A DNA stretch of 64,000 nucleotides from a virus, in the IMG/VR virus record IMGVR_UViG_3300028831_000395, positions 1 to 64,000 of that record; one strand, given 5' to 3'. The notes below the pieces were generated by a model, which did no database searches, was not told the DNA's origin, and saw nothing but the letters and a program-made list of their open reading frames with translations. Both the position numbers and the translations under genes were made by a program. Positions 11,287 to 64,000 of this stretch are shown piece by piece (the stretch's first letter is position 1; the number at the start of each line of letters is the position of its first letter).

Positions 11287-11311
11287 GGGGTTGCACTACA
11301 GAGTGTAGCGC
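11287..11311 (-). promoter_or_regulatory. Conserved phage promoter/leader motif, copy 4 (palindromic variant)
   Basis: Minus strand reads GCGCTACACTCTGTAGTGCAACCCC and contains CTACA-CTC-TGTAG. Confidence 0.6.
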
Positions 11312-11396
11312 ACTTGGCGGGGTTCGTGGGATCGGATCTCTCTGCCGGCGAGGCACGCCCAGAGCCTGAATTCCCGCTTGATCCCCACCCCGACCT

Positions 11397-11426
11397 GCGC
11401 TACACTCTGTAGCACAGAGCAACCCC
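11397..11426 (+). promoter_or_regulatory. Conserved phage promoter/leader motif, copy 5 (plus strand, palindromic variant)
   Basis: GCGCTACACTCTGTAGCACAGAGCAACCCC. TTGATC lies 17 nt upstream of TACACT. GGAGG then ATG 11443. Confidence 0.65.
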
Positions 11427-11442
11427 GCAGACGGAGGACAGC

Positions 11443-11769
11443 ATGGCCCGCATCCAGACCCGCACCAACGAGCGTCACGAGAACATCGCCAAGGCCGCCA
11501 ACCAGGCCGCCGAGGCGGCGCTCTGCCACTACGCGCACTTCAACGGCGTCCACTTCACCGACGAGGACTTCGACGCGCAGCAGGCGACGATGCGCAACGC
11601 GATCATGGAGCAGCTGCACCGCATCGAGCACGCGAAGGTGCTCGCCACGCACGCCGCGCTCAACGAGGCGCTGCAGCGCGCCGTCGCCGTCGAGGAGCTC
11701 AGCGACGAGCTCGCCGCGGTCGCCCCGCGCGAGCCGCGCATGATCCCCGCCGTCACCACGCGCTGGTAG
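11443..11769 (+). CDS. Hypothetical helical protein (108 aa)
   Basis: GGAGGA lies 6 nt before the ATG. First gene of the plus-strand island. Confidence 0.6.
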   Translation: MARIQTRTNERHENIAKAANQAAEAALCHYAHFNGVHFTDEDFDAQQATMRNAIMEQLHRIEHAKVLATHAALNEALQRAVAVEELSDELAAVAPREPRMIPAVTTRW

Positions 11770-11776
11770 CCCCCCG

Positions 11777-12145
11777 ATGCTCCGCCATCGCCCGCGCATC
11801 GCCGCCGCCAGCGACGCCGTCGACACCGTCCTGCTCGACATCGTTCTGCCCGCGCTGGACCGCCTCGTCGAGCGCGTCGAGCGTCGCGCTATGCCGCCGC
11901 TCGCCCGATACCTGCGTCGCCGCGCGGAGTACGCCGCCGACGTCGAGACCGTCAGCGTGGACTTCCGTCGCCTCGACCACGTGCTCACGCACGCCGAGGC
12001 CGACACCGTCAGCGGCGCGCTCGCGCTGTACGCCGCGCAGCTGCGGTTCGCGGCCGACGCGCTCGAGGTGCTGCCCGTCCCGTCGACCGATCGGCCGGAG
12101 CGCGCCGACTACGCCCGCATCGTCGCGATCAAGGCCCTCCCATGA
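11777..12145 (+). CDS. Hypothetical protein (122 aa)
   Basis: Protein-like helical sequence, same operon. Confidence 0.5.
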   Translation: MLRHRPRIAAASDAVDTVLLDIVLPALDRLVERVERRAMPPLARYLRRRAEYAADVETVSVDFRRLDHVLTHAEADTVSGALALYAAQLRFAADALEVLPVPSTDRPERADYARIVAIKALP

Positions 12146-12387
12146 CCCGTCGCGTTCTCCGCCAGATCCGTGCGGGCCTCGGGCGGGCCGTCAGCGCGAA
12201 CGAGCACCTCGCCGGGGCGTCCGCGTCGACATCGACGCAGGCGCGCCTCGACGCGCTCTGTCGCCGCGACCCCAAGATCGTCCGCGAGACGGTCGAGGAG
12301 CTCGCTCGGATGCGCGCCGGCTGGCAGCACACCAGCTACGACACCGCCCTAGGCCAGCTCCTCGACGCGATGGAGAAGAACCGATGA
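12142..12387 (+). CDS. Hypothetical protein (81 aa)
   Basis: ATGA-coupled. Confidence 0.5.
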   Translation: MTRRVLRQIRAGLGRAVSANEHLAGASASTSTQARLDALCRRDPKIVRETVEELARMRAGWQHTSYDTALGQLLDAMEKNR

Positions 12388-12845
12388 CCGTCACCGACCA
12401 CGCCGCCGGCCTCGCGACGGAGAAGACCCGGCAGCTGTTCGACGCGCTGCACGAGTCGTGCAGGGCGGCGCGTCTCGACCCTCCGTTCATCGACGAGTTC
12501 GCGGACTACGTCGTCGCGCTCGCGTGCGGTCGGGGCGAGGCCTGGCTGAAGGTCTTCATCGGCGAGCGCGAGGCGGAGGCGCAGCGGCGGTGCCTGGCGA
12601 TCTACGAGACGCTCGACCGCTTCGCGCGCCTGAACCGCGTCGACTACCAGGACGTCGCGTTTGCGGCGGAGGACGCTCGCTTCGCGTGCTCGTGCGATCC
12701 GCGCGTCCTGGTGCTCGTGACGAGCGCGGGCGGCGCGATCGTCGCGGATCTCGCCGGCGGTCACGTCGAGGAGTTCTCGCCGCGCCCACGCGGCCACCGG
12801 ACGCCGCTGCGCTGGCTCGCCGACCTCTGGCTCGGCCGGGCATGA
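12384..12845 (+). CDS. Hypothetical protein (153 aa)
   Basis: ATGA-coupled. Balanced composition. Confidence 0.55.
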   Translation: MTVTDHAAGLATEKTRQLFDALHESCRAARLDPPFIDEFADYVVALACGRGEAWLKVFIGEREAEAQRRCLAIYETLDRFARLNRVDYQDVAFAAEDARFACSCDPRVLVLVTSAGGAIVADLAGGHVEEFSPRPRGHRTPLRWLADLWLGRA

Positions 12846-13020: not shown

Positions 13021-13428
13021 TCAGCGCGCCGGGATCTTCGGCCCGGTGTACCCGCAGGACGGGCATGGCTGCTGCCCGCTGCGCGGCGACCCGTAGATCC
13101 GGCACGTCCGGCACGCCGCGCCCGGCGATCCGGGCGACGACAGCTCGGCCGGCGCCTCAACGGCGATCTCCGCGGCCGCAGGCGCTGAACCCTGAGGCGC
13201 CGGGCGAGGTGTGGGGCGAGCCGCTCGAGGCTTCGCGGGCGGCCTCGGCGAGACGCGCACCACCGCCGCCGGGGTCTGCGCCGGCCCCGTCACCGCGCCG
13301 CCGTACGTCGCGCGGACGGCCGCGCGAACGAGCCACGAGAGATCGCGGTCGTCGCGACCGGCCGCCGCCTGCAGCAGCTGCTCTTCAAGGTCGGTGAAGC
13401 GGATGGAGCGCTGAGCCACCCCGCGAGT
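13021..13428 (-). CDS. Ribbon-helix-helix (CopG/Arc-like) regulator with C-terminal zinc ribbon
   Basis: GTG start. N-terminus SIRFTDLEEQLLQAAAGRDDRDLSWLVRAAV, Pro-rich linker, then CRTC...CPSC. Divergent from the 13714 operon. Confidence 0.6.
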   Translation of the reverse strand, partial: TRGVAQRSIRFTDLEEQLLQAAAGRDDRDLSWLVRAAVRATYGGAVTGPAQTPAAVVRVSPRPPAKPRAARPTPRPAPQGSAPAAAEIAVEAPAELSSPGSPGAACRTCRIYGSPRSGQQPCPSCGYTGPKIPAR

Positions 13429-13592
13429 GTAACCCACCGGGTGACACCGCAACCCGCGGCGTGGCGGCGCCGCTGACCTGACGCTCTCCACCGAGAGAAC
13501 CGGAGCCGGGGCAGCCCGCATCCCGGTCCACGCCCCGTTCGCCTCGCTCGACGCCGCCCACCCCAACCCTAACTCACGCGCCGAGCGGCATC

Positions 13593-13654
13593 CCGCTACA
13601 CAGGCGGCTATGACGCCTCCGACGCTCACCGTAACCTCTGTAGCCCAATCAACC
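13593..13654 (+). promoter_or_regulatory. Two degenerate plus-strand copies of the promoter motif
   Basis: CCGCTACACAGGCGGC (13593-13608) and CCGTAACCTCTGTAGCCCAATCAACC (13629-13654), upstream of ATG 13714. Confidence 0.35.
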
Positions 13655-13713
13655 ACACGCGGCGCCGCGTAAACCAACCACGACGCCGCAGGGACACAGG
13701 AGGCATATCTCCC

Positions 13714-14109
13714 ATGCGACACACACACTCTCACAACCCCCCACCCCCCAACCTCAACGCCGACGAACACCCCGCCCTCGCGCCGCCGGGTCGCACGAGC
13801 GGGCACCGCAGGCTAGGCTCAGGGCTTCGCCCGCCTAGCCGCCCGCCGCGGACCCTCGGGTTGATCGGGGCTTTGGCGGGCGTGGTGGTTCTGGTGGGCG
13901 TGCTGCTTGTGGTGGGGGGTGTGGTGTCGGTGCCGGGTTGGTATTCGCCGCCGGTGGAGTACAGCGATGTGGTGCGGTCGCATCCGTGGGTGGCGTCGGG
14001 GCTGGTGTTCGGTGCGGCGCTGTCGGTGTTCGTGCTGTTCGTGTCGGCGGTCGTTTCGTTGCCTGAGCCGCGTGGGCGTGGGCGGCGTGAGGGGGGTGGG
14101 TCGGCGTGA
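13714..14109 (+). CDS. Membrane protein, 2 TM (131 aa)
   Basis: AGGAGG lies 10 nt before the ATG. TMs are LIGALAGVVVLVGVLLVVGGVV and ASGLVFGAALSVFVLFVSAVV. Confidence 0.6.
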   Translation: MRHTHSHNPPPPNLNADEHPALAPPGRTSGHRRLGSGLRPPSRPPRTLGLIGALAGVVVLVGVLLVVGGVVSVPGWYSPPVEYSDVVRSHPWVASGLVFGAALSVFVLFVSAVVSLPEPRGRGRREGGGSA

Positions 14110-14468
14110 TGCGGCTTATCCGGTTGGCTCGGCTGATCGTGTCGCTGCTGATGGTCCTCGTCGGCCTGGTTGGCGGCGGGCGCTCTGCGGCGCCTTCGGC
14201 TCCGGCGTACCCGACGCCGCCGGCGGCCGTTCCGAGCTCGCCGGCCGCGCCGGCGCGGGTTGTGCCGCACGGTCCGACGCCGCACTGCACGACGTCGGGC
14301 GGACCGAGGGCCTCCGACGGTGCGAATCGGTGGGTCGGGGTGTGCTTGGTCTACGGGCAGAGCACGCCGCTTCCCGGCGACTACGCGACGCAGCGCGAGG
14401 CGCGGGCGACGGTGTTCGCGTTCCAGCAGGCGTGGCGCGACGCCGTCGCGAGCGGAGCGCCGCTGTGA
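14106..14468 (+). CDS. Secreted / signal-anchored protein (about 120 aa)
   Basis: N-terminal MMRLIRLARLIVSLLMVLVGLVGG then a Pro-rich linker. Coupled start GTGATG. Confidence 0.55.
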   Translation: MMRLIRLARLIVSLLMVLVGLVGGGRSAAPSAPAYPTPPAAVPSSPAAPARVVPHGPTPHCTTSGGPRASDGANRWVGVCLVYGQSTPLPGDYATQREARATVFAFQQAWRDAVASGAPL

Positions 14469-14740
14469 GCCGGCTGGGCACGGCGATCGTCGTCCTGGCG
14501 GTCGCGTGCGTGGTCCTGGCGGTCGTCGGCGTCGCGACCGACGGGGCGTCGATCGGGACGCTCCTGGTCATCGCCACCGTGGGACTCGCGATCGTCGGCC
14601 TCACCTCCGGTGCCCGACGCGGCGGCGAGTGCGGGCACGTGCCGCCTCCGTCGTTCGGTAGCGACCGGCACGACTGGCGGTGCACTCGCGAGCGTCGCCA
14701 CTACGGCACCCACCGCTATCACCGCCGGGGTGAGGCGTGA
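14465..14740 (+). CDS. Membrane protein, 2 TM (91 aa)
   Basis: GTG in a GTGA overlap. TMs are TAIVVLAVACVVLAVVGVA and TLLVIATVGLAIVGL. Confidence 0.5.
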   Translation: MSRLGTAIVVLAVACVVLAVVGVATDGASIGTLLVIATVGLAIVGLTSGARRGGECGHVPPPSFGSDRHDWRCTRERRHYGTHRYHRRGEA

Positions 14741-15222
14741 GCCTCCGAAGGCGCATCGTGACGCTGCTGTTTGCCGCCTGGTGCGTGTGGGGGTACCTGA
14801 CGCTCGTGCCGGCCGTGCCGCGCGCGGACTGCGACAAGCAGTCCTCGCCGGTCGCGATCAAGGTCAGCGTGTCGCGGTACCCCGAGAACTGGCGGCACAT
14901 CGTGGACGCCCGCCACGGCCGCAACACCGTCGGCGGCACGAAGGTGATCGACGACGGCCTGCGGTGGCCGGTCGTGCTGGTCAAGAACGACCAGGGCGAG
15001 GACCAGCGTCGGCAGGCCGCGTTCCGGCTGGCCGGTCTCGCCGGGAAGACGAAGGCCGGCAAGGCACGCGACGAGTACCCCCCCGCTGAGGGTCGATCAA
15101 CGAACGCCGCGGACATCCGGTTCGTGAACGCGCGGCAGAACAGCGCACAGGGCGCGAGCATGGGTGGCCAGCTCCGCAGGTGGTGTAACGGCCAGACGTA
15201 CAAGCTGGTGGCCGCACCGTGA
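14737..15222 (+). CDS. Exported NucA/NucB-type deoxyribonuclease-like protein
   Basis: Signal/anchor IVTLLFAAWCVWGYLTLVPAV. Family-like string RYPENWRHIVDA...RRQAAF...ARDEYPPAEG...IRFVNARQNSAQGASMGGQL. Confidence 0.65.
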   Translation: MSLRRRIVTLLFAAWCVWGYLTLVPAVPRADCDKQSSPVAIKVSVSRYPENWRHIVDARHGRNTVGGTKVIDDGLRWPVVLVKNDQGEDQRRQAAFRLAGLAGKTKAGKARDEYPPAEGRSTNAADIRFVNARQNSAQGASMGGQLRRWCNGQTYKLVAAP

Positions 15223-15749
15223 AGTGGTTTGGTGGCCGGGCCCGTCCCGAGGAGGGTCCGGCCGCCCCGCATCACGTGCATCTCACGAAGCCGCCGTGGG
15301 CGACGTCGTCGCGCATGTCGGGCGGGGTCCTGAAGGGCTCAACGCCGCAGGAGCGCGCGCAGAAGGGAATCGATCAGCGCGACCGCGAGCGCGTGCAGGC
15401 GCTCAGGAAGCGCGCGAGCACCGCGGGGTACGCGGCGTATTGGGCGGCTCGCAACGCCGCCCGGGCGCTCGACACCGCCAACCGCGCGCAGCTGCGCGCC
15501 GACACCGCAGGGGCGTCGGAGGAGCAGCAGATCAAGCTCGAGGCCGCCGTCGATTCGACGCGTCGAGCGCACGGCCGCTGCGACGACGCGTCGAGGCGCG
15601 CGCGGTCCGCGGCGAAGCGCGCGACGGCGCTCACCGGCGGGCGCCTGCTCGGCGCGGTACACGAGGCCGAGGCGCACAAGGAGGTCGCCGCCCGGGCGCT
15701 GCACGAGACGAAGGCCGCCGCGGCGGCCGCGGTCAAGCACGCGAGGTAG
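15219..15749 (+). CDS. Hypothetical all-helical protein (176 aa)
   Basis: GTGA-coupled. Ala/Arg/Glu-rich predicted long helices. Confidence 0.45.
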   Translation: MKWFGGRARPEEGPAAPHHVHLTKPPWATSSRMSGGVLKGSTPQERAQKGIDQRDRERVQALRKRASTAGYAAYWAARNAARALDTANRAQLRADTAGASEEQQIKLEAAVDSTRRAHGRCDDASRRARSAAKRATALTGGRLLGAVHEAEAHKEVAARALHETKAAAAAAVKHAR

Positions 15750-15751
15750 CC

Positions 15752-17332
15752 GTGGAGTTCTTGCTGACCATCGTGGCGCTCGCGCGGTTCGTGTTCGACA
15801 CGGTCTTCTTGATCGGGCGGGCGGCGTGGGATCACCCGGGGCGCGCGGCGTTCGTGCTCGCGTTCGCGGGCCTGGCCGCGCTCTTCGGCGTGTACGCCGC
15901 CGTCGGTGCGGTCCTGGACCTGATCATCGCCGCGGTCGTGCTGCGGTGGACGCGCAAGCGATGGTGGTTCCGGCTCGTCGGGTGGTGGTGGCGGCCGACG
16001 TGGCGTCGCTGGCGGCACTACGAGCTGCGGTGGCGAGCCGTGATGAAGATGTGCTGGCTGTCGACGGTCGTCGATAACGGCCTCGACGAGTTCCCGCTGA
16101 TCGGCAAGGTGCAGGTAGGCCCGTTCGGCGACGTCCTGCTCGTGCGTGTCCTGATCGGGCAGAAGCTCGCCGATTGGGAGGACCGGGTCGACGAGCTCGC
16201 TACGGCGTGGGGCGCGCAGTCGGTCCGCGCGTTCCCGCACTACCGCGACAAGGCGTACCTGCGTCTGGCGCTGCTCGAGGGCGCCGAGGGTACCCGTCGG
16301 CGCGTGCGCCCGGTGATCCGCCGAGACGGCCCGAAGCGGGTGCCCGGGATCGTGCGGCTAGAGGTCGCCGTGAAGGACCCGCTGTCGGTGCCGGTGCCGC
16401 CGGTGCCGATCCCCGCGACGTCGTCGCAGATCACCTACGAGGCGATCCCGGTCGGCCTGACGGAGAACGGCACGACGTGGACGCTGAAGGTCCGCGGCGC
16501 GCACATCCTGATCGCCGGCCTCACCGGGTCCGGGAAGGGCTCGGTGTTCTGGGCGATCCTGAAGGGCCTGGCGCCGGGGATCAGGGACGGCATCGTCGAG
16601 GTGTGGGCGATCGACCCGAAGGGAGGCATGGAGCTGTACACCGGGCGGCCGCTGTTCACGCGCTACTGCGACTCAAGCGAGGCCGCTATGGCGCAGCTGC
16701 TGGCGCAAGGCGTGACGGAGATCGATCACCGCACGCAGCGCCTCAAGGGCGCGACGCGCAACCACACGCCGACGGTCGAGGAGCCGCTGATCGTGATCCT
16801 CGTCGATGAGTTCGCGTCGCTCATGGTCCCGAAGAGCTCGAGCAAGGAGGACAAGGCGGTCGCCGAGGAGGCGAAGGCCGCCGCGACGATGATCGTCAAT
16901 AAGGGCCGCGCCGTCGGCGTCGTGCTGATCGGGGCGCTGCAGAACCCGCGCAAGCAGGTCGTGGACATGCGCGACGAGTTCCCCGAGCGCGTCGCTATGC
17001 GGCTGCTGTCGGCCGACTACACCGACATGATGTTCTACCGCGGCGCCGCACGGTCGGGCATCCGCTGCGACCTGATCCTGCGGTCGCTGCCGGGCACCGG
17101 GTACGCCTGGTCAGACGACGCCCGCGCGATCGTGAAGGTCCGCGCCGCGTACGTGGACGACGACGAGATCCACGCCCTCGCGCTCGAGTACCAGCCGCCG
17201 AGGGGACCGACGACGATCACCGACGCCGAGCTCGCGGAGTGGCTCGACAAGATCAGCCACGAATCGCACATCGACGAGGTCCTGCACGAGATCGAGGCGA
17301 GCGCCGACGTCGAGGCCGGCGCCGACGACTAG
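15752..17332 (+). CDS. Membrane-anchored FtsK/SpoIIIE-family DNA translocase (TraB/TraSA-like)
   Basis: GTG 15752 lies just after the upstream TAG. Two N-terminal TMs and a W/R-rich segment RWTRKRWWFRLVGWWWRPTWRRW. Walker A GLTGSGKGS, Walker B LIVILVDEFA, and LIGALQNPR. Confidence 0.8.
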   Translation: MEFLLTIVALARFVFDTVFLIGRAAWDHPGRAAFVLAFAGLAALFGVYAAVGAVLDLIIAAVVLRWTRKRWWFRLVGWWWRPTWRRWRHYELRWRAVMKMCWLSTVVDNGLDEFPLIGKVQVGPFGDVLLVRVLIGQKLADWEDRVDELATAWGAQSVRAFPHYRDKAYLRLALLEGAEGTRRRVRPVIRRDGPKRVPGIVRLEVAVKDPLSVPVPPVPIPATSSQITYEAIPVGLTENGTTWTLKVRGAHILIAGLTGSGKGSVFWAILKGLAPGIRDGIVEVWAIDPKGGMELYTGRPLFTRYCDSSEAAMAQLLAQGVTEIDHRTQRLKGATRNHTPTVEEPLIVILVDEFASLMVPKSSSKEDKAVAEEAKAAATMIVNKGRAVGVVLIGALQNPRKQVVDMRDEFPERVAMRLLSADYTDMMFYRGAARSGIRCDLILRSLPGTGYAWSDDARAIVKVRAAYVDDDEIHALALEYQPPRGPTTITDAELAEWLDKISHESHIDEVLHEIEASADVEAGADD

Positions 17333-17375
17333 GTCCGATTGCGTAGGAACGGCAGGCGTCATCACCGCGCATTGC

Positions 17376-17984
17376 CTACGAGCGCGCTTCGTCCCACGTC
17401 AGGATCACGCGGGTGCGGTAGATGCCGCGCGGCGACGCCACCGGGTCGATCGCCATCGTCAGCACCCAATCGCGGTCCTTGTCATCCACGAGCCAGCCGC
17501 CGGTGTAGGCGCGGTGCTGGTAGGTGAGCACGCGGTCAAGCTCGGGGTCCTGGTGCCGCGGCCCGGTCAGCGCGTCGCCGACGGCCTTGGCGATCACCGG
17601 CCGGCGGTTCTCGCTCTCCTGCTCGTCGGGGCGCGGGTAGGACACGACGAGGTGCACCCACAGCGGGCGGAGCGCCGGGACGGGGCGCGTGAGCACCGCG
17701 CCGGGCCCGTAGCTGAGCGCGTCCATCGCCCGCATGAGCTCGCCCTGCCACGACCCCTTCTCGGCGTGGAAGCCCTTCCAGCTCGACCGGATCGCGTTCA
17801 GGTTCACCGACGACGGCGCGCCCGGCAGCACGAACGCGACGCGGCGCCGGCGCATCGCCGGCGTGTCCGCGATCAGCCCGAGGTCCCGTGAGGCGTGCCA
17901 CCACAGCGCGCCCAGCGCGCCGTCCGTCGCCGCGATGCGACGCTCAAGCTCCGCGAGGTCGTCGCCGACAAGGGCGAGCGTCAC
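17376..17984 (-). CDS. RusA-like Holliday-junction resolvase candidate (202 aa)
   Basis: GTG in a GTGA overlap. FVLPGAPSSVN ... ENRRPVIAKAVGDALTG ... GGWLVDDKDRDWV resembles the RusA DxDN..K..DAL..DD pattern. Confidence 0.45.
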   Translation of the reverse strand: MTLALVGDDLAELERRIAATDGALGALWWHASRDLGLIADTPAMRRRRVAFVLPGAPSSVNLNAIRSSWKGFHAEKGSWQGELMRAMDALSYGPGAVLTRPVPALRPLWVHLVVSYPRPDEQESENRRPVIAKAVGDALTGPRHQDPELDRVLTYQHRAYTGGWLVDDKDRDWVLTMAIDPVASPRGIYRTRVILTWDEARS

Positions 17985-19665: not shown

Positions 19666-20006
19666 CGGGGGTTGGCCTCCTTACAGTTCGCGGCGTGCTC
19701 GTCGGTCGAGCCGGGTCGGTCCATGTGCGGCATGCCGCCGCAGCACCACAGGCGCTTCGGCACGGGCTCGGCGCCGAGCACGATGCGCCAGCGCGGCGGC
19801 AGCTCGTCGAACGGCCCGAGCACGACGACGTCGCTGAGCGTGCATGCGTCGTGATCGGTCTCGTCGAGGAAGAGGTGCGCGGCGTCCGTGATCGCCTCCT
19901 CCTCGTCGGGCGCCTCGAGGAACGCGGCGTGCCCGATCTGCGTTGGTCCGCCGCCGGGATCGGCCGTCGTGACGAGCCACAGCCGCAGCGGGTTTGGCTC
20001 CGTCAT
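19662..20006 (-). CDS. Hypothetical protein (114 aa)
   Basis: ATGA-coupled on both sides. Confidence 0.55.
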   Translation of the reverse strand: MTEPNPLRLWLVTTADPGGGPTQIGHAAFLEAPDEEEAITDAAHLFLDETDHDACTLSDVVVLGPFDELPPRWRIVLGAEPVPKRLWCCGGMPHMDRPGSTDEHAANCKEANPR

Positions 20007-21919
20007 GGCCGGCGCTCCGCGATCTTGTCGGCGTACAGCAGGTAGGCGGGGTGCACGCGCCGGCTGCGCTCCTCGACGAGCCCGAGCGTCTTGAGCTTGC
20101 TCAGGTTCGTGCGGAAGCTGCCGCCGCGGGAGTCCGCGAGCCGCTCGAGTTCGGCGCGGGTGAAGCCCTTGCCGGCGGGCCCGGAGCGCAGCACGACGTC
20201 GAGGACGCGGCGCTGCCCGGCGACGAGCTTGCCGATGTGCTTCGCGATGATCTCGTCGCGTGTCCAGGGCACGCCGACGGCGTCCTGCAGGCCCATCTCG
20301 CGGTCGGCGTAGACGTCGCCCTTGTGCGTGAGCGCGGCGCGCCCGTCGGTCTCCTCGACGAGCCCGGCGGTCTTGAGCGTCGAGAGGTTCGTGCGCATCG
20401 ACCCGCCGTAGGTGTTCGCGAGCGTCTGCAGCTCGTGCCGCGTGAGCGACCCGTAGCGCGCGAGCGCCTCGACGATGCGGCGCGCGCCGGCGACGAGGTC
20501 GGGCCCGGTGCCGTTCGATGTCGCGGCTCTCGCCGGCGACGGGTCACGCTTGACCCGCGGCAGCTCTTCGGTCGGCTCGCGCCGGCGCGGCGGCGGCGGG
20601 CGGCGTGCCTCCTCGTCGGCGCGTGGGAGCGCCGCGATCTCCGCGCCGAGGCCCCCGACGCTCTTCGACAGCGCCGTCGCGGCCTCGAGCAGGTCGGCGA
20701 CGTGCGTCTCGACGTCGTCGTGCGCAGCGCTGACCTTGGCGATGTCGACGGGCGGTCGGTCGAGCAGCTCGCGGACGCGGTCGAGCACCTCCTCGTGGCG
20801 ACCGGACGCGCCGGGGTCCAGGCCGAGGACTGCGGCGATGTCGTCGAGCTCGCCGCGCGAGAGGTTGCGGTCGGCCTGCGCCGCCTCGACCTCGGCGGCG
20901 GCTTCCCGTAGCTCGCTCTCCGAGACCGCGTCCTCGCGTAGGCGCTTGATCTCCCGCTCGAGGTCGGCGATCTGCTCCTTGAGCAGCGTCGGATCGTCGG
21001 CCTTGGCCTCTTCGATCGTGTCGGCCATGAGGTCGCGCAGCGCCTCGAGGTCGGCCTGTGTGTGCGCGGTCGGCACGATCGCCGACTCGCCCGGCGCGAC
21101 GGTCCGGGAGCTGTCGAACGTCTCTTTGGGGCGGATGCGGAAGACGCCCTCGATGCCGAGCGTCGGCGCTGATACGCGCGCGACGCCGCGCTCCAGGCCG
21201 ACGACCTCGGCGCGGATGGCCTTCCAGTCCTCGCCGACGTTCTCGACCCAGCCGCGGAGCTGCGCGAGGTCGTTATTGCCGCGCAGGCGGTGCGCGAACA
21301 TGATCTCGCACAGCTCGAGGACGTCCTTGTGCAGCTTCGCGAGGCGCTGCGTGATAACGAGCACCGACATGCCGCGGCGACGGCCGAGCGCGACGGCGTC
21401 GACCACGGCGCCGAGGCATCGCGCGACGTCGCCGCCCTCGTCGCGGACCGCTTGCGGCGCGAAGCGGTGCGCCTCGTCGATGACGATGAGCACGTGCCCG
21501 CGGATGACCTCGTAGAGCTCGGAGAGGTAATCGCCGACGAACCGCTGTCGCGCGGCCCATGAGCGGAAGTGCGGTCGGTCGAGGTCGAGAACGGGACTGA
21601 CGCCGTGCTCGGCCGTGAGACGCGCGACGGCGCGGCCGGCGGAGTCGTTGAGCGGGATCTCGCCGTGCTCGCCGCCCATGACGACCATGTCCAGGCCGGC
21701 GCGCTTGCCGTCGGCGGAACTCGTGACGCCCCACCATGCGCCGGACGGGTCGATGACGACGACCTGCACGCCGGCCTTGCGTGCCTCCTCGACGACGACG
21801 ACCGCCGTCGAGGTCTTCCCTGTGTCGGTCTGACCGACGACTGCCGTGCGACGCGTCACGAGCTCGAGCGGCAGCGTGAGATCCTCGCCGAGGCGCAGGG
21901 CCTGCGCGGAGGCCGTCAA
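20003..21919 (-). CDS. HerA/FtsK-superfamily (DUF87-like) ATPase with coiled coil and two C-terminal winged-helix repeats
   Basis: Proposed TTG start (TTGA overlap). Walker A VVGQTDTGKTS, VVVIDPSG, Walker B LIVIDEAHRF, VLVITQRL. The C-terminus has two copies of ..TRxELxxLA...GGSxRTNLSxLKTxGLVEE. Confidence 0.7.
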   Translation of the reverse strand: MTASAQALRLGEDLTLPLELVTRRTAVVGQTDTGKTSTAVVVVEEARKAGVQVVVIDPSGAWWGVTSSADGKRAGLDMVVMGGEHGEIPLNDSAGRAVARLTAEHGVSPVLDLDRPHFRSWAARQRFVGDYLSELYEVIRGHVLIVIDEAHRFAPQAVRDEGGDVARCLGAVVDAVALGRRRGMSVLVITQRLAKLHKDVLELCEIMFAHRLRGNNDLAQLRGWVENVGEDWKAIRAEVVGLERGVARVSAPTLGIEGVFRIRPKETFDSSRTVAPGESAIVPTAHTQADLEALRDLMADTIEEAKADDPTLLKEQIADLEREIKRLREDAVSESELREAAAEVEAAQADRNLSRGELDDIAAVLGLDPGASGRHEEVLDRVRELLDRPPVDIAKVSAAHDDVETHVADLLEAATALSKSVGGLGAEIAALPRADEEARRPPPPRRREPTEELPRVKRDPSPARAATSNGTGPDLVAGARRIVEALARYGSLTRHELQTLANTYGGSMRTNLSTLKTAGLVEETDGRAALTHKGDVYADREMGLQDAVGVPWTRDEIIAKHIGKLVAGQRRVLDVVLRSGPAGKGFTRAELERLADSRGGSFRTNLSKLKTLGLVEERSRRVHPAYLLYADKIAERRP

Positions 21920-22269
21920 GACGTCACCCCGCGCTCTTCCGATTCGGGGTCGGTCCCGATGCCGCAGCCGCACGCGTCGGCGAAGTCGTCGGGCGGCGGG
22001 ATGCTCGGCGCGTCCTGTCGGCCGAGGCGCCCAGGTACGACGTGCACGACGAGCGCCGGCGTGCTGCTCATGTGATGCCTGATCCAGCCGTCCCATCGGA
22101 CGCTGAACGGGTGATCGCTGATCCGTACCGTGTGCGAGTGCCCGCCGAGCGCGTGGCAGTCGCCGCGCGTGCACAGCGGGAGACGCGGCGCGTCGTTCGG
22201 GATGCCGCCGTGCCAGACCTCGACGACGGTCGGGATCTGCGCGGGCGCTGCGAGGAGCACGCCCGTCAT
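21916..22269 (-). CDS. Cys/His-rich hypothetical protein (117 aa)
   Basis: CTRGDCHALGGHSHTV ... ACGCG. ATGA-coupled on both sides. Confidence 0.5.
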   Translation of the reverse strand: MTGVLLAAPAQIPTVVEVWHGGIPNDAPRLPLCTRGDCHALGGHSHTVRISDHPFSVRWDGWIRHHMSSTPALVVHVVPGRLGRQDAPSIPPPDDFADACGCGIGTDPESEERGVTS

Positions 22270-25400: not shown

Positions 25401-26375
25401 TCAGCCGACGATCGCGGCGAGCTTCTCGCCGACGCCGTCGCCGCCCTCGGCGATGACGCGCTGCACCTCCTCGTGACGCTCGGCCAGGTCCGGCCAGCGA
25501 CGCTCGGCCCACGCGACGAGCTGGTCGGCGCGCTCGACGAGGTCCTGCCCGCGGTAGTGCGAGGCGAGCTCGAGGACGCGCGCGGGATCGTCGTAGAGGC
25601 CGTCGTGGGCGCGCTCGACGATCTCGGTCAGCAGGCGCGGCAGGTCGTCCTCGGCGGTCTCGAGCGCCTCGCCGGTGCCGCGCAGCGACCGGATGATCTG
25701 TCGTGCGGCGGCGACGGCGCTGTCCTCGGCGTTCTGGTCGACGGCCTTCGTCTGGGCGGGCGCGAGGACGCGCGCGTCGGGCTTGCGCATGTCGGCGGCG
25801 AAGACGATGCCGTTGAGGACGAAGACGTCCTGGCCGGTCGAGTCGTCCTTGCGCACGCGGATGACGCCGAAGCGCTGCCGGCTCCGGACGGAGAACTTGA
25901 CGAGCATCGCGGCCTTCTCGTCGCGCAGCGCGCGCATGATCGTGCGCATGGGGCGGTCGAAGCCGGGGTCGGGCTGCACGTAGAAGGTGCCCGTCAGGCG
26001 GTCGGTCGGCACGAGGCGGTAGTCGATGAACTCGAGCAGGTCGACGGTGTCGAGATGCGTCGCGGCGTGCGCGTAGTCGATCTCCGACTGCGGGACGACG
26101 CGGAAGTCGTCGCCGACGCGGACGCCCTTCACGGCCTCCGCGATGACCTCGGGCACCTCGACGACCTCGAGGTCCTCGACGGTCGTGGCCTCGGGGTCCT
26201 TCGCCTCGTAGAGCTTGCGGACGCGCTCGGGGTGCGCGTACTGCTGCACGCGCGACGTGCCGTCGGGAAAGGCGGTGTCGAACCTGACGTCGGTCGAGCC
26301 GGTCGCGGCGGCGATGCCGACGGGGATCTTGAGCAGCTCGCCGAGTACGAGCGTGGTCCTGGTTACTGCGCGCAT
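25401..26375 (-). CDS. ku: Ku-like DNA end-binding protein
   Basis: LGELLKIPVGIAAATGSTDVRF, VKGVRVGDDFRVV, LEFIDYRLVPTDRLTGTFYVQPD, MRALRDEKAAMLVKFSVRSRQRFGVIR follow the bacterial Ku core pattern. Confidence 0.7.
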   Translation of the reverse strand: MRAVTRTTLVLGELLKIPVGIAAATGSTDVRFDTAFPDGTSRVQQYAHPERVRKLYEAKDPEATTVEDLEVVEVPEVIAEAVKGVRVGDDFRVVPQSEIDYAHAATHLDTVDLLEFIDYRLVPTDRLTGTFYVQPDPGFDRPMRTIMRALRDEKAAMLVKFSVRSRQRFGVIRVRKDDSTGQDVFVLNGIVFAADMRKPDARVLAPAQTKAVDQNAEDSAVAAARQIIRSLRGTGEALETAEDDLPRLLTEIVERAHDGLYDDPARVLELASHYRGQDLVERADQLVAWAERRWPDLAERHEEVQRVIAEGGDGVGEKLAAIVG

Positions 26376-26497: not shown

Positions 26498-26908
26498 ATG
26501 GTCGTCTCGGTCATCGCGGCGGTGTCGAGCAGCATCGGGATACTGATCGGGGCGGCGGTCTCGGTCGGCGGGATGGTCGGCGGCGCGATCGCGTTCGTGC
26601 TCCGGTACAAGCGGACCGATGAGGGCGAGCACGTCAAGCAGCAGAGCCAGGTCCTGGCCGACGCGATGGGCGTCTACGAGAAGCTGCAGCGAACGCTCAC
26701 GCAGACCGAGGAGCAGCTCTCCGCCGCGAAGATCGAGCGTGACGCCGCCAAGGCCGAGCGAGACGCGGCGAAGGCCGAGCGAGACGAGGCGACCGCGGAG
26801 CGCGAGCGGATGCGTGTGCAAGTCGAGTCGCTGACGGCCGAGGTGTCGAGCCTGACCGAGAAGGTGGACACTTTGCAAACGACGCTTGAGCAGGTGAGGG
26901 ACCGATGA
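26498..26908 (+). CDS. Membrane-anchored coiled-coil protein (136 aa)
   Basis: N-terminal TM then heptad-like repeats AKIERDAAKAERDAAKAERDEATAERE. Confidence 0.65.
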   Translation: MVVSVIAAVSSSIGILIGAAVSVGGMVGGAIAFVLRYKRTDEGEHVKQQSQVLADAMGVYEKLQRTLTQTEEQLSAAKIERDAAKAERDAAKAERDEATAERERMRVQVESLTAEVSSLTEKVDTLQTTLEQVRDR

Positions 26909-27699
26909 GCACGAACGGCAGCGACATCCGCGATGCGGTCAAGATGCTCGGCGCGTCGATCGCCAGGGCTCACGCCTACATAAAGATCCTCGGCATCGGC
27001 GTCCTGTTCTGCATGGTCATCGTCGGCGCCGGCGTCGCGATCAACGGCTGCAACGCGCTGAGGGCGAACGACAGGGCGAACGCCGCGCAGGAGCAGAGCG
27101 CGAACGCCCAGGGCCAGACCGCCGACACGATCGCGTGCCTGCGCACGACGCGCTCGCAGACCCGATCTCGCGATCGATGCCTGCGTCAGATCGAAACCCA
27201 GGTGACCGCGCCTGGCAAGCCCGGCGCGTCTGGCCGCCGAGGCGCGACGGGCGCCACGGGTCCCATCGGTCTCAAGGGCGACGAGGGCGAGAAGGGCGAT
27301 ACCGGCGCGACCGGGCCGCGCGGGCCGCAGGGGCTACCGGGAACGCAGGGCGTGCAGGGCGCGAAGGGCGACAAGGGGGACCCCGGGGACGCGGGGACCA
27401 GCCCCCCGCCAGCTCCCGCGAGGCCACCGACGCGACCACCGGATCAGCGACCCGACCGCCCGGGAGACCGCCCCCCGCCCGACGAGCCGCCTCGGCGACC
27501 GCCGCCCGGCATGCAGGGACCTCGAGGCGAGAAGGGCGACCCGGGGGAGAAGGGCGAGAAGGGCGATACCGGGCAGCCTGGTGCGCCGGGCACGGTCGTG
27601 CTGTCGATCGAGACGGCGTGCCCCAACGGGCTCGGCGGCGGCCTGACGCCGGGCGTCGCGACGGACCCCGACGGCGACGGGAACTTCACCTGCCCGTAG
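26905..27699 (+). CDS. Membrane-anchored collagen-like (G-X-Y) repeat protein (264 aa)
   Basis: TM ILGIGVLFCMVIVGAGVAI. About 20 G-X-Y triplets, a Pro-rich linker, about 9 more triplets, then a C-terminal globular tail. ATGA-coupled. Confidence 0.8.
   Translation: MSTNGSDIRDAVKMLGASIARAHAYIKILGIGVLFCMVIVGAGVAINGCNALRANDRANAAQEQSANAQGQTADTIACLRTTRSQTRSRDRCLRQIETQVTAPGKPGASGRRGATGATGPIGLKGDEGEKGDTGATGPRGPQGLPGTQGVQGAKGDKGDPGDAGTSPPPAPARPPTRPPDQRPDRPGDRPPPDEPPRRPPPGMQGPRGEKGDPGEKGEKGDTGQPGAPGTVVLSIETACPNGLGGGLTPGVATDPDGDGNFTCP
27214..27591 (+). repeat. Collagen G-X-Y triplet-repeat coding region (two blocks, 27214-27396 and 27508-27591)
   Basis: GKPGASGRRGATGATGPIGLKGDEGEKGDTGATGPRGPQGLPGTQGVQGAKGDKGDPGDAG and GMQGPRGEKGDPGEKGEKGDTGQPGAPG. 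Confidence 0.8.
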
Positions 27700-62657: not shown

Positions 62658-64000
62658 TCAGAACTTCTCGTCGAGGATCCCGCCCATGATCGTGCCCGGC
62701 CCGGTGTCGCCGGGCGGGTCCTCCTCGCCCTTCGGTCCGGGCTGCGGGTTGGCCCACGTGATCGCCTGGCTGAACGCGTCGACCTGGTCGTCGTACGCGC
62801 CGGCGGGGAACGTCGCGGCCTCGTGGATCCAGTCGGCGACGGTCGTCGGGACGATGTCGTGGCGGACGCCGCGCTCGTCTGTGTAGAACTCCGGGCAGGG
62901 GATCGTGTCGGCGGCCGGCAGGATGATCTCGCCGCGCTCAGCGTTCGGTGAGACGGCCGCGGCGCGCACGTCCTTGCCGCCCTCGGGCTCGATCTCGATC
63001 CAGCCGCTGATCTCGCGCTTGAGCGCCGATACGACGGCGGGCCCGTTCGCCTTCGCCTCGACGAGCTTCCATGTCGCTCGAGGCTCGAACGCGGTCATCG
63101 CGCGCACGACGTGCACGGTCTCGGCGAAACCCCATCGGCCCCGAGCCTGCGCCAGCAGGTAGCAGTCCATGCCGTGGATGCCCCAGACCTGCCCGACGAC
63201 GTAGCTCGTGCTCGCCTTCTTACTGTCGCCGAATCGCATGTCCCAGGACTGCACGAGCACCCGCCAGCCTCGATGGAGGTAGCGGTCGAAGCCGGGCTGC
63301 CAGCGCCGCGCGAACCATGCGCGCTGGAACGTGCCGCCCTCCTCTGGGGCGGGCTGCTGCTGGTACTGCCCGGCGTAGGCGTAGCTGCCGAGGTCGCGGC
63401 GGCGCTGGTCAAGCGTCGTCTCGTTCAGGCGGACGGGGTCGAGCTTCTCGCCCTTCTCGGTGCGTGGGTCGCCGGCGATCTCGCGGCCGGACGGCAGCGT
63501 CGCCTGGGCGGGGTAGGTGAACTGGTGCGACGGGATGTACTCGGCCGGCAGGCACAGGTGATGCCAGCCGATGTCGCGCGCGAGGAGATGGCCGGTCAGG
63601 TCGTTCTCGTGCAGGCGCTGCATCACGATCACCGCGGCGGCGTGCTCGTCGATGAACCGCGTGGTCATCGTCTCGTCCCACCAGCGGTTCGCGGTCTTGC
63701 GGTCGGCCTCCGAGCGAGCCTGCCGCGGGTTGAGCGGATCGTCCACGACGATGCGGTCGCCGTGGTCGCCGGTCGCCTGGCCGCTGACGGACGTCGCGAG
63801 GCGCATCCCGGTCTCCGTCGTGTCGTAGCGGCCCTTCGCGTTCTGATCAACCGACAGCTGCCACGTCTGCCCGAGGAGCCGCAGCACGCCCTGGTAGCCG
63901 CGCCTGGCGAACAGGCCACCGGTCGCGGCGCCGCCCTGAGACTGGATCAGCGTGCGCATCTTCCGCGAGTCGCGGAACGCGAAGTCCTGCGCGTACGACG
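62658..64000 (-). CDS. Terminase large subunit, partial (5' end beyond window)
   Basis: The frame stays open upstream of the first Met through to the window edge. IVVDDPLNP, VMQRLHENDLTGHLL, nuclease-domain SWDMRFGD and DDQVDAFSQAITW. Confidence 0.85.
   Translation of the reverse strand, partial: SYAQDFAFRDSRKMRTLIQSQGGAATGGLFARRGYQGVLRLLGQTWQLSVDQNAKGRYDTTETGMRLATSVSGQATGDHGDRIVVDDPLNPRQARSEADRKTANRWWDETMTTRFIDEHAAAVIVMQRLHENDLTGHLLARDIGWHHLCLPAEYIPSHQFTYPAQATLPSGREIAGDPRTEKGEKLDPVRLNETTLDQRRRDLGSYAYAGQYQQQPAPEEGGTFQRAWFARRWQPGFDRYLHRGWRVLVQSWDMRFGDSKKASTSYVVGQVWGIHGMDCYLLAQARGRWGFAETVHVVRAMTAFEPRATWKLVEAKANGPAVVSALKREISGWIEIEPEGGKDVRAAAVSPNAERGEIILPAADTIPCPEFYTDERGVRHDIVPTTVADWIHEAATFPAGAYDDQVDAFSQAITWANPQPGPKGEEDPPGDTGPGTIMGGILDEKF

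Follow-up and report, generated by a model that had tools for sequence, protein, structure and literature searches.

An operon of an uncultured contractile-tailed phage pairs a predicted conjugation-type DNA translocase with a NucB-fold nuclease

To our knowledge, conjugation driven by a single FtsK-type protein is so far known only from the plasmids and the integrative and conjugative elements (AICEs) of actinomycetes. FtsK-like genes are widely annotated in actinophages, and we know of none with an assigned function. In the Streptomyces plasmids pSVH1 and pIJ101, one membrane FtsK-like pump for double-stranded DNA (dsDNA), TraB, stands beside several small, translationally coupled membrane, exported or peptidoglycan-associated Spd proteins (PMC4447253), and AICEs of the pMR2/pSAM2 type encode a related transfer protein, Tra (PMC2440964). 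Thoma et al. raised the possibility that actinophages use their Spd homologues to spread phage DNA (PMC4447253), and the Streptomyces plasmid-phage pZL12/phiZL12 reportedly has a tra locus (Zhong et al. 2010, J Bacteriol 192:3747, as cited in PMC3583192). Here we describe a six-gene plus-strand operon (the cassette, positions 13714-17332) in the IMG/VR phage record IMGVR_UViG_3300028831_000395, of whose 73-kb contig a stretch of 64 kb, hereafter the window, was analysed. The cassette is an accessory, self-contained operon of an uncultured, high-GC, contractile-tailed phage lineage. Its genes, g1 to g6, are predicted to encode a dsDNA pump that is co-translated with a NucB-fold DNase, a cytoplasmic coiled-coil-like protein and two or three small proteins that are exported or sit in the membrane. 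The reading that we favour, tentatively, is that the cassette serves virion-independent translocation of dsDNA to a neighbouring cell or compartment.

The GC content is 70-75% all along the window. Lists of open reading frames (ORFs) are therefore uninformative by themselves, and genes were called from third-position GC (GC3) in a frame plot. The frame plot supports the six-gene operon of the original prediction, a reading of the letters of this DNA made before any database search, and also a divergent minus-strand gene ending at 13021. The six genes are translationally coupled: GTGA start/stop overlaps join them at 14106, 14465, 14737 and 15219. The overlaps that had been claimed are present at these four junctions and not at the last one (g5/g6), which reads TAG-cc-GTG at 15749/15752. 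The AGGAGG that had been noted 10 nt ahead of the first start codon, ATG 13714, is found at 13698-13703.

The last gene, g6 (15752..17332, plus strand), encodes a 526-aa protein with the features of a membrane-anchored FtsK/SpoIIIE-type dsDNA translocase. It scores 35.1 bits against the Pfam family FtsK_SpoIIIE (PF01580; cut-off 24, E 1.2e-8) and matches the FtsK/SpoIIIE-like family of PHROGs at E 1.7e-26. A profile built from 52 homologues recovers the FtsK αβ motor (2IUU) at E 3e-20, along with the coupling protein TcpA of pCW3, and FtsK motors rank first (E 1e-18, prob 1.0) in a Foldseek search with the AlphaFold2 (AF2) model, which has a predicted local distance difference test score (pLDDT) of 87. 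The single FtsK/SpoIIIE motor that had been proposed is supported by the Pfam score and by an αβ fold in both profile and model. The Walker A motif GLTGSGKGS and the Walker B motif LIVILVDEFA also read as described, at 16517-16543 and 16787-16816, the former beginning three nucleotides downstream of its claimed start at 16514. In place of the two N-terminal transmembrane (TM) helices that had been claimed, the model has three, and the hydrophobicity scan (Kyte-Doolittle) gives two strong segments with a moderate one between them. The helices are followed in the model by a W/R-rich helix (residues 69-100), a beta-rich domain (116-206), the motor itself (232-479) and a single C-terminal helix (491-521).

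The closest relatives of this motor are found among transfer proteins. In a tblastn search of a plasmid collection, the best match of g6 is the FtsK/SpoIIIE protein (Tra) of the Micromonospora AICE pMR2 (E 8e-56, 36% identity over 75% of the protein), followed by small actinomycete plasmids. Cultured phages give E values of ~1e-8 at best and 23-30% identity, the matches being cluster J mycobacteriophages and the Streptomyces phage Gilgamesh. This difference bears out the kinship to actinomycete conjugation translocases that had been suggested. A set of 5.8 billion proteins holds about 20 proteins at 43-88% identity to g6, and then hundreds (460-505 aa) at 38-42%; P0034, which is 42% identical, sits in an element of the order GntR-x-x-Tra-RepSA-Xis-Int within a 3.2-Mb contig. 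The phage-borne motors form one clade beside the AICE clade in a neighbour-joining tree, and in the alignment of motors all members, phage and AICE alike, share G256-S264, D352-E353 and R407. By homology and predicted architecture g6 belongs to the AICE Tra type, and we take it to be a membrane-anchored, hexameric-type dsDNA pump of a sister clade to the main AICE transfer proteins.

The likeness to AICE Tra proteins extends over most of the length of g6 (36% identity to pMR2, 38-42% to hundreds of others) and includes the N-terminal membrane helices, the W/R-rich juxtamembrane helix, the single αβ motor and shared alignment columns in the N-terminal part. AICE loci, too, have small co-transcribed genes upstream of the motor gene and a divergent regulator. 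Unlike its AICE counterparts, however, the phage gene is part of the genome of a tailed phage and adjoins no rep, int or xis gene; the phage motors form a clade of their own, and the regulator candidate of the cassette is not of the GntR type. AICE loci, in turn, have neither a NucB-type nuclease nor a coiled-coil protein, whereas the phage cassette couples the motor to both.

The resemblance to the TraB/Spd systems is looser. These share with the cassette a single FtsK-like membrane pump for dsDNA and, in concept, a set of small coupled envelope proteins. In contrast to TraB, the phage motor has no C-terminal winged helix-turn-helix (wHTH) domain, and the phage has no array of the 8-bp TraB recognition sequences (TRS/clt). 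The products of g1-g3 have no similarity to SpdB2, SpdB3 or Spd79 and lack the four-TM architecture of SpdB2, and TraB/Spd systems have no nuclease. We considered g6 as an equivalog of Streptomyces TraB and rejected this, given a score of 18.3 bits against the NCBIfam model plasmid_TraB (NF041214), whose cut-off is 800, and the lack of both the wHTH and a clt-like array. The label 'TraB-like', taken strictly, does not hold for the same reasons, and the Spd-like nature that had been ascribed to the small proteins is reduced to an analogy: g1-g3, with one or two TM segments each, match no Pfam, PHROG or NCBIfam family.

The FtsK-like proteins of cultured actinophages (Omegavirus/cluster J, Gilgamesh, Geonosis, Mandalore and Naboo) are likewise phage-borne and carry an FtsK/SpoIIIE domain. 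They differ from g6 in being 23-30% identical to it over the ATPase core (E ~1e-8), in lying on the same strand as their neighbours and in having no annotated NucB-like partner. The cluster J phages resemble the window in one further respect: their FtsK-like gene and a Ku gene are four genes apart, and Ku is also encoded by the window phage.

The second enzyme of the cassette is the product of g4 (14737..15222, plus strand), a 161-aa protein predicted to be a signal-anchored endonuclease of the NucB type. As a single sequence it scores 23.4 bits against the Pfam family NucA/NucB (PF14040), just below the cut-off of 23.8. A profile of 32 of its homologues matches Bacillus NucB (PDB 5OMT) at E 9.1e-14, and Foldseek with the AF2 model (pLDDT 89) returned NucB structures at TM-scores of 0.84-0.87 (prob 1.0) and matched no other fold. 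Profile (E 9e-14) and fold (0.84-0.87) agree with the NucA/NucB assignment originally made from a motif. Residues Y48, P49, W52, H54, D57, R111-D112-E113-Y114-P115-P116, N135, Q138, G139 and C150 are invariant in 32 sequences, and C32, the other member of the cysteine pair, is nearly so (≥90%). D112, E113 and N135 align to the RDEW...DN of NucB, the asparagine being equivalent to N117. That g4 encodes a NucB-fold nuclease is firmly supported by its sequence and predicted structure. Since a hydrophobic helix (residues 3-23) follows RRR at the N-terminus and the cysteine pair is conserved, we infer that the enzyme is tethered to the membrane and faces outward, that is, that it is extracytoplasmic.

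The Bacillus nuclease NucA is a membrane-associated competence nuclease that cuts surface-bound dsDNA and so gives ends to the uptake machinery. The g4 product resembles NucA and NucB in fold and active-site motif, and NucA also in its predicted tethering and orientation. It differs in sequence (~25% identity to Bacillus NucB), in belonging to a phage-specific subfamily, and in having an extra N-terminal β-α unit and the conserved cysteine pair. Its gene, moreover, is coupled to that of an FtsK-type motor rather than to ComEC/ComFA, and we recognised no inhibitor of the Nin/ComJ kind. The phage and plasmid collections yielded no homologue of g4 by tblastn, and BFVD no match to its fold.

The cassette recurs in related phages. 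The order of small TM or secreted proteins, NucB-like protein, helical protein and motor is repeated in L005, L006, L007, L010, L012 and L014, which together with L013, L020 and L104 (grouped with L006) and L008 (grouped with L007) are the relatives considered here; they are contigs of 40-86 kb from soil metagenomes, two of them IMG/VR viral genomes. IMGVR_UViG_3300048606_000052 and IMGVR_UViG_3300028831_000378 are records of relatives with the cassette. In the synteny search that had been suggested, the cassette travels with at least six related uncultured phage contigs, and no close copy was found in 185,579 species-representative genomes. The relatives carry it on the strand opposite to its flanks and convergent with a neighbouring gene, d1, with genes for Ku, DUF5131, a HARE-HTH protein and a methylase beyond. 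The motors of the relatives are 47-88% identical to that of the window, and the nucleases 53-77%. In a comparison with L005, the ratio of non-synonymous to synonymous substitution rates (dN/dS) is 0.22 for g6 and 0.24 for g4. The sequence comparisons indicate that the cassette is conserved as a unit under purifying selection.

The g4 subfamily, as far as its sequences go, is found only with this motor. There are 33 homologues, and all 33 members of the subfamily come from contigs whose lengths agree with those of motor-bearing contigs. More distant NucB-like genes (27-42% identity) stand alone in the viral contigs L017 and L018 and in 79 of 80 genomic loci. These 80 loci come mostly from Solirubrobacterales and actinomycetes, and none has a Tra-type motor nearby; the exception is the Firmicute locus L074, where a T7SS-like (type VII secretion system) ATPase lies near the NucB domain. 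The phage L019, which is more distant, shares d1, the helical protein, small envelope proteins and a divergent form of the motor, and no NucB-like gene can be recognised in it. A 112-aa exported protein of L019 was considered as a NucB derivative without the catalytic core and was rejected (hhalign probability 27%).

This distribution bears on whether motor and nuclease work together at all. Conceivably the cassette joins two loosely connected functions: the motor, directed by the small membrane proteins, would segregate phage DNA through closing septa into daughter compartments or spores in a carrier state, much as SmeA-SffA or SpoIIIE do, and the exported DNase would separately break down DNA that is extracellular or set free by lysis, to release virions or to salvage nucleotides. 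Pumping DNA at septa is what FtsK/SpoIIIE motors do, g6 matches the FtsK αβ motor in fold and profile, and it has small membrane partners. The solitary NucB-like genes in L017, L018 and 79 of the 80 loci, and the motor without NucB in L019, also fit two separate functions. The g4 subfamily, however, occurs only beside this motor and is translationally coupled with it, and in distant relatives the nuclease is better conserved than the motor (61-63% against 47% identity). The motor clade, moreover, is sister to transfer proteins and not to chromosomal FtsK or SffA. We consider two separate functions quite unlikely.

FtsK-family ATPases and NucB domains also meet in another setting. Low-GC contigs encode long proteins in which the NucB domain serves as the C-terminal toxin module; in L015 (9512-10945) it is preceded by a long N-terminal extension, with a candidate immunity gene downstream, and in L074 (4777-10333) a ~1500-aa FtsK-family (T7SS-like) ATPase lies directly upstream of the NucB-domain ORF. 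L074 is a different kind of FtsK-family/NucB adjacency. By analogy, g6 could be a T7SS ATPase of the EssC/EccC type, and the NucB-domain protein a toxin that it exports to attack neighbouring cells, as the secretion ATPases adjoining NucB-domain toxins in Firmicutes (L074), the candidate immunity gene of L015 and weak NCBIfam matches to EccC/EssC would suggest. Those matches reach 19-23 bits against cut-offs of 347-778, and g6 has one ATPase domain where EssC/EccC have several. The g4 product lacks an LXG/WXG domain and brings a Sec-type signal anchor of its own, and the best structural and sequence relatives of g6 are dsDNA translocases. Of all the readings we weighed, this export of a toxin is the least probable.

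Whether the cassette belongs to the core of these phages can be judged from L103, a 73.6-kb viral contig (72.9% GC; IMGVR_UViG_3300018432_000004) found in IMG/VR through the HARE-HTH gene that neighbours the cassette in the window, independently of the cassette itself. Two stretches of the window, 31.8 down to 20.0 kb and 10.3 to 8.4 kb, are syntenic with L103. The intervening 10.3-20.0 kb of the window, which hold both plus-strand operons, d1 and a YdjM-like membrane hydrolase, are replaced in L103 (12983-15946) by four same-strand genes, including one for an N6/N4 DNA methylase; genes for the motor, the nuclease and d1 are all missing from L103. The region is a variable cargo hot-spot between conserved blocks. 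Because L103 is syntenic and cassette-free, the cassette is accessory cargo, and a core replication or packaging role, which the original prediction had named as a finding that would speak against its idea, is contradicted. The presence of the cassette in most of the relatives found would fit such a core role, and the separate terminase/portal packaging set of the phage does not. Nor does the cassette look like an inert remnant of a captured AICE: although its motor shares ancestry with AICE Tra, and L006, L007 and L010 have Walker-A-like fragments ahead of the cassette, its catalytic motifs are intact, its two enzymes have dN/dS values of 0.22-0.24, it is conserved over deep divergence, and no rep, int or xis gene is nearby. 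We regard an inert remnant or a core function as very unlikely.

The cargo location also speaks for the main rival of the transfer reading, superinfection exclusion or defence. The module would be expressed on the opposite strand from a promoter of its own, the pump would capture entering DNA and expel or block it, and the tethered DNase would degrade it at the envelope, which would shield an infected or lysogenic cell from other phages, plasmids and transforming DNA. The opposite strand, the cassette's own divergent regulator candidate and its place in a variable hot-spot all fit this, as does the DNA methylase that occupies the same place in L103, a typical conflict-type accessory cargo. So does a nuclease predicted to face outward and non-specific by family. 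PHROGs classes phage FtsK-like proteins as 'moron/host takeover', and FtsK/HerA-type ATPases occur in defence systems, whose PADLOC models mad8 and SspH match the P-loop domain of g6. These are, however, generic P-loop matches (33-48 bits); in PADLOC-DB 2.0 nothing else is matched by g6 (mad8 48 bits, SspH 33-40 bits), nothing at all by the nuclease, g5, g1-g3 or the regulator candidate, and no described defence system is assembled. The close relatives of the motor are conjugation rather than defence proteins, and gene content and order are stable over 47-88% divergence, more than is usual in exclusion morons. We also know of no mechanism by which an FtsK-type ring could load onto DNA under injection. 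Exclusion is a possibility that we take seriously and nevertheless find doubtful.

At the 5' end of the operon lies a conserved 30-bp inverted-repeat element, GGCTAGGCTCAGGGCTTCGCCCGCCTAGCC (13811..13840, plus strand), inside the g1 ORF and in one copy per genome. A peptide of g1 that recurs in short ORFs of the relatives, RLGSGLRPPS, led us to it, and the conservation is at the DNA level. The element is identical but for one C/T in L006 (8163-8192), L007 (4127-4156), L010 (8580-8609) and L014 (9506-9535), whose proteins are 47-63% identical, and it is among the longest exact matches that these genomes share. It is read through the codons CTA, TCA, CTT and CCT, which are rare in such genomes. 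In the predicted fold an outer stem of 8 bp surrounds a second stem, GGGC/GCCC, which ends in a UUC loop, and the variant in L012 (1936-1964) changes unpaired positions only. A second conserved stretch, GGTCGCACGA, lies ~12 nt upstream. The RNA fold of the region is unremarkable in itself (z = -1.1), and Rfam has no match in 13.3-14.3 kb. The element is absent from L019, L103 and AICEs; a metagenome scan with the 30-mer gave 0 matches, and a stems-only scan of IMG/VR gave unrelated hairpins except in two contigs of the same phage lineage. From its sequence, the element is a candidate for either a protein-binding DNA site or a regulatory device acting through RNA or a leader peptide. A motor without a wHTH domain needs a recognition site, and the element, if it is a DNA site, is the obvious candidate.

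The element is overlain by a leader, the N-terminal ~45 codons of g1, which starts MxxTHSH and is conserved in relatives. In L007 and L010 this leader is a separate short ORF with its stop just past the element. The leader ORFs of L006 (7808-8269), L007 (4000-4188) and L010 (8279-8638) contain a Walker-A-like stretch, L(I/V)AG(T/K)TG(S/T)GK(G/A)S..W, that mimics the P-loop of the motor; g1 of the window keeps the MxxTHSH start and RLGSGLRPPS and has no such stretch. The Walker-A-like leader ORF may be the remnant of an old duplication or a small regulatory protein. The coding status of the first ~45 codons of g1, over a conserved nucleic-acid element, is doubtful.

We rank virion-independent translocation first because the nearest relatives of the motor transfer DNA and because the operon layout resembles that of tra/spd operons. 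The small envelope proteins and the motor would assemble a trans-envelope dsDNA translocation device like the Tra/Spd apparatus, and the device would carry phage dsDNA, with no virion involved, across a membrane or septum to the cell or compartment next door. As the motor has no DNA-recognition domain, specificity would need another protein acting on a cis site, for which the 30-bp element is again the obvious candidate. The outward-facing nuclease would act on DNA at the outer face of the membrane, where it might make ends or clear competing DNA. We infer that the cassette proteins form one trans-envelope DNA-handling machine. The intact Walker A, Walker B and arginine columns of the motor, the catalytic D-E...N motif of the nuclease and a cysteine pair that fits export are consistent with such a machine. 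A bolder proposal is that the phage is also a conjugative element, with pump, envelope partners and nuclease as a transfer machine that uses the 30-bp element as its cis transfer site, so that phage genomes pass directly between neighbouring cells or hyphal compartments; taken as a whole we think this unlikely.

Several observations weigh against translocation to neighbouring cells. The AF2 model of g6 has no γ or wHTH domain, neither the cassette nor its vicinity holds a clt-like repeat array, and the small proteins lack similarity to Spd proteins. AICE Tra loci have no NucB-like gene, and the motor of L019 occurs without a recognisable one. An outward-facing, non-specific DNase is no obvious helper of transfer and could equally destroy DNA. 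A mycelial host is not a given: Solirubrobacterales/Thermoleophilia abound in distant relatives of the NucB-like and Tra-like proteins. The function proposed for the phage clade comes from sequence and predicted structure. Finally, the replication, partition and integration genes of a self-sufficient transferable replicon were not found in the 64 kb.

On this last point the plasmid-phage pZL12 is instructive. As cited in PMC3583192, it is similarly a phage genome with a conjugal transfer locus, made up of a major tra gene and adjacent genes. It is reportedly a demonstrated plasmid that has repA and a tested tra locus, whereas no replicon or partition genes were found in the 64 kb of the phage described here.

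The remaining genes of the cassette encode small proteins. A hydrophobicity scan (Kyte-Doolittle) agrees with the order originally given for g1-g4, namely 2-TM, signal-anchored, 2-TM and exported. Gene g1 (13714..14109, plus strand) is a 131-aa ORF of which the C-terminal two-thirds, on GC3 and hydrophobicity, make up the 2-TM protein. The 120-aa product of g2 (14106..14468, plus strand) is a predicted exported protein with a signal or anchor, a Pro-rich linker and a cysteine pair; it has a clear homologue in L012 (2349-2720) and a weak match in L006. Gene g3 (14465..14740, plus strand) encodes 91 aa with two TM segments and a tail that is basic and rich in His. The product of g5 (15219..15749, plus strand), cytoplasmic, Ala/Arg/Glu-rich and 176 aa long, is probably a coiled-coil protein, judging by its sequence. 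It evolves fast (dN/dS 0.44 against L005), too fast for it to be classified; a homologue search gave only 3 matches. A protein of the same kind fills this slot in every relative.

Upstream, the divergent gene (13021..13419, minus strand) encodes a small protein of 132 aa from GTG 13419, with GTG 13437 as an alternative start; the start at 13428 that had been given for it reads ACT and is no start codon. The protein is a candidate regulator on its sequence pattern, and no counterpart was found in the relatives. It had been described as a ribbon-helix-helix (RHH) regulator with a zinc ribbon. A C-terminal CxxC...CxxC, which follows a Pro/Ala-rich linker, is indeed present. The N-terminal pattern SIRFTDLEEQLLQAAAGR..LSWLVRAAVRATY is strand-helix-helix-like and compatible with RHH as a sequence pattern only, and neither profiles nor the PDB lend it support: the protein has no match in Pfam, PHROGs or NCBIfam, nor among PDB sequences at E up to 10. 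The control region between the divergent genes (13420..13713) contains, besides the AGGAGG, two copies of the palindrome GCGGCGCCGC, one at 13464-13473 and one inside the 14-bp perfect palindrome ACGCGGCGCCGCGT at 13656-13669, and these are candidate operators. A scan for promoters and terminators gave no sigma-70 consensus and no convincing terminator. The clt or TraB-recognition words that had been thought worth seeking did not turn up: scans for 8-mer clusters and repeats gave nothing specific, and no 8-mer array, in 13.4-13.7 kb or 17.0-17.4 kb.

Downstream, the convergent gene d1 (17376..17984, minus strand; ~200 aa) accompanies the motor gene in every cassette-bearing relative examined and is missing from L103 along with the cassette. 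It is linked to the cassette and is not a proven component of it. Its invariant motifs N..K..GDALTG and GWL.DD look RusA-like, and it has no match in Pfam, PHROGs, NCBIfam or PADLOC.

The surroundings are clearly those of a contractile-tailed phage on the gene matches: terminase, Mu-type portal, protease, capsid, sheath, tape measure, baseplate J and lysozyme genes lie around the cassette, and the matched portal, sheath, tape measure and baseplate J genes confirm the context proposed at the outset. Megablast found no close DNA relative among cultured phages, and the portal shares only 38% identity with those of Arthrobacter phages. Further genes in the window encode RecT, a PD-(D/E)XK nuclease, Ku, DUF5131, a HARE-HTH protein and a HerA-like ATPase. 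The 64-kb window yielded no gene for an integrase, excisionase, RepSA, repressor, partition protein or tRNA, and phage genes surround the motor gene. Nearly all genes outside the plus-strand block are on the minus strand, as had been stated. The block is not the only exception, since a short plus-strand pair lies at 26498-27699.

This pair, beside Ku (25401-26375, minus strand), encodes a DUF2514-like coiled-coil protein and a protein with collagen triple-helix repeats, and the 8-mers AAGGGCGA and GAGAAGGG are repeated at 27274-27567. Ku and FtsK-like genes co-occur repeatedly in unrelated actinophages; in the cluster J Mycobacterium phage KashFlow (L101 2613-6014) Ku is four genes from the FtsK-like gene. 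A second ATPase of the FtsK/HerA superfamily (20003-21973, minus strand; 656-723 aa) matches DUF87/HerA, Zot-like and PADLOC HerA models; it is kept in L005 and L103 and absent from L006, L007 and L010. The ORF of the terminase large subunit (62658-63959, minus strand) matches its PHROG profile at positions 377-713 of 760 only, the C-terminal half, and probably continues past the end of the window. A perfect 17-bp inverted repeat, CTACAGAGTGTAGCGCA / TGCGCTACACTCTGTAG (11296-11312 and 11396-11412), lies in the divergent intergenic region upstream of the first plus-strand operon (11443-12845). The region of its right arm has exact matches in L006 (31 nt), L010 (22 nt) and L007 (21 nt), and the repeat is probably a conserved operator or promoter.

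AICE Tra proteins, TraB/Spd systems, pZL12, NucA/NucB and the FtsK-like genes of actinophages are each already known. For a DNA pump that works with nucleases in DNA donation there is a parallel in TdtA, of the transjugation module of the integrative and conjugative element ICEth1 of Thermus thermophilus (PMC5365140). TdtA is a membrane-associated dsDNA pump of the FtsK/HerA superfamily, without a DNA-recognition domain of its own, and is encoded in one operon with nucleases that donation requires (PMC5365140). It differs from g6 in being a HerA-type ATPase, its partners are a cytoplasmic NurA and a restriction enzyme with no exported nuclease, and it resides on an integrative and conjugative element and not on a phage. 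The pairing of a motor of this general kind with a NucA/NucB nuclease was put forward as undescribed, and none was found in the phage and plasmid collections, BFVD or the literature searched. The same sources gave no description of the phage clade of AICE-type motors, of its obligatory-looking coupling to a dedicated NucB subfamily, or of the 5' element.

The cassette is a testable case in which a phage clade of a conjugation motor is tied to a candidate cis site and to a DNase that is predicted to be exported. If the cassette serves transfer, the boundary between phages and conjugative elements would be blurred, and phages would have a second route of spread. If it serves exclusion, pump plus nuclease would be a new principle of exclusion. 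Either way, the coupling to a nuclease bears on how ring translocases are loaded and how DNA ends are handled in FtsK-type conjugation.

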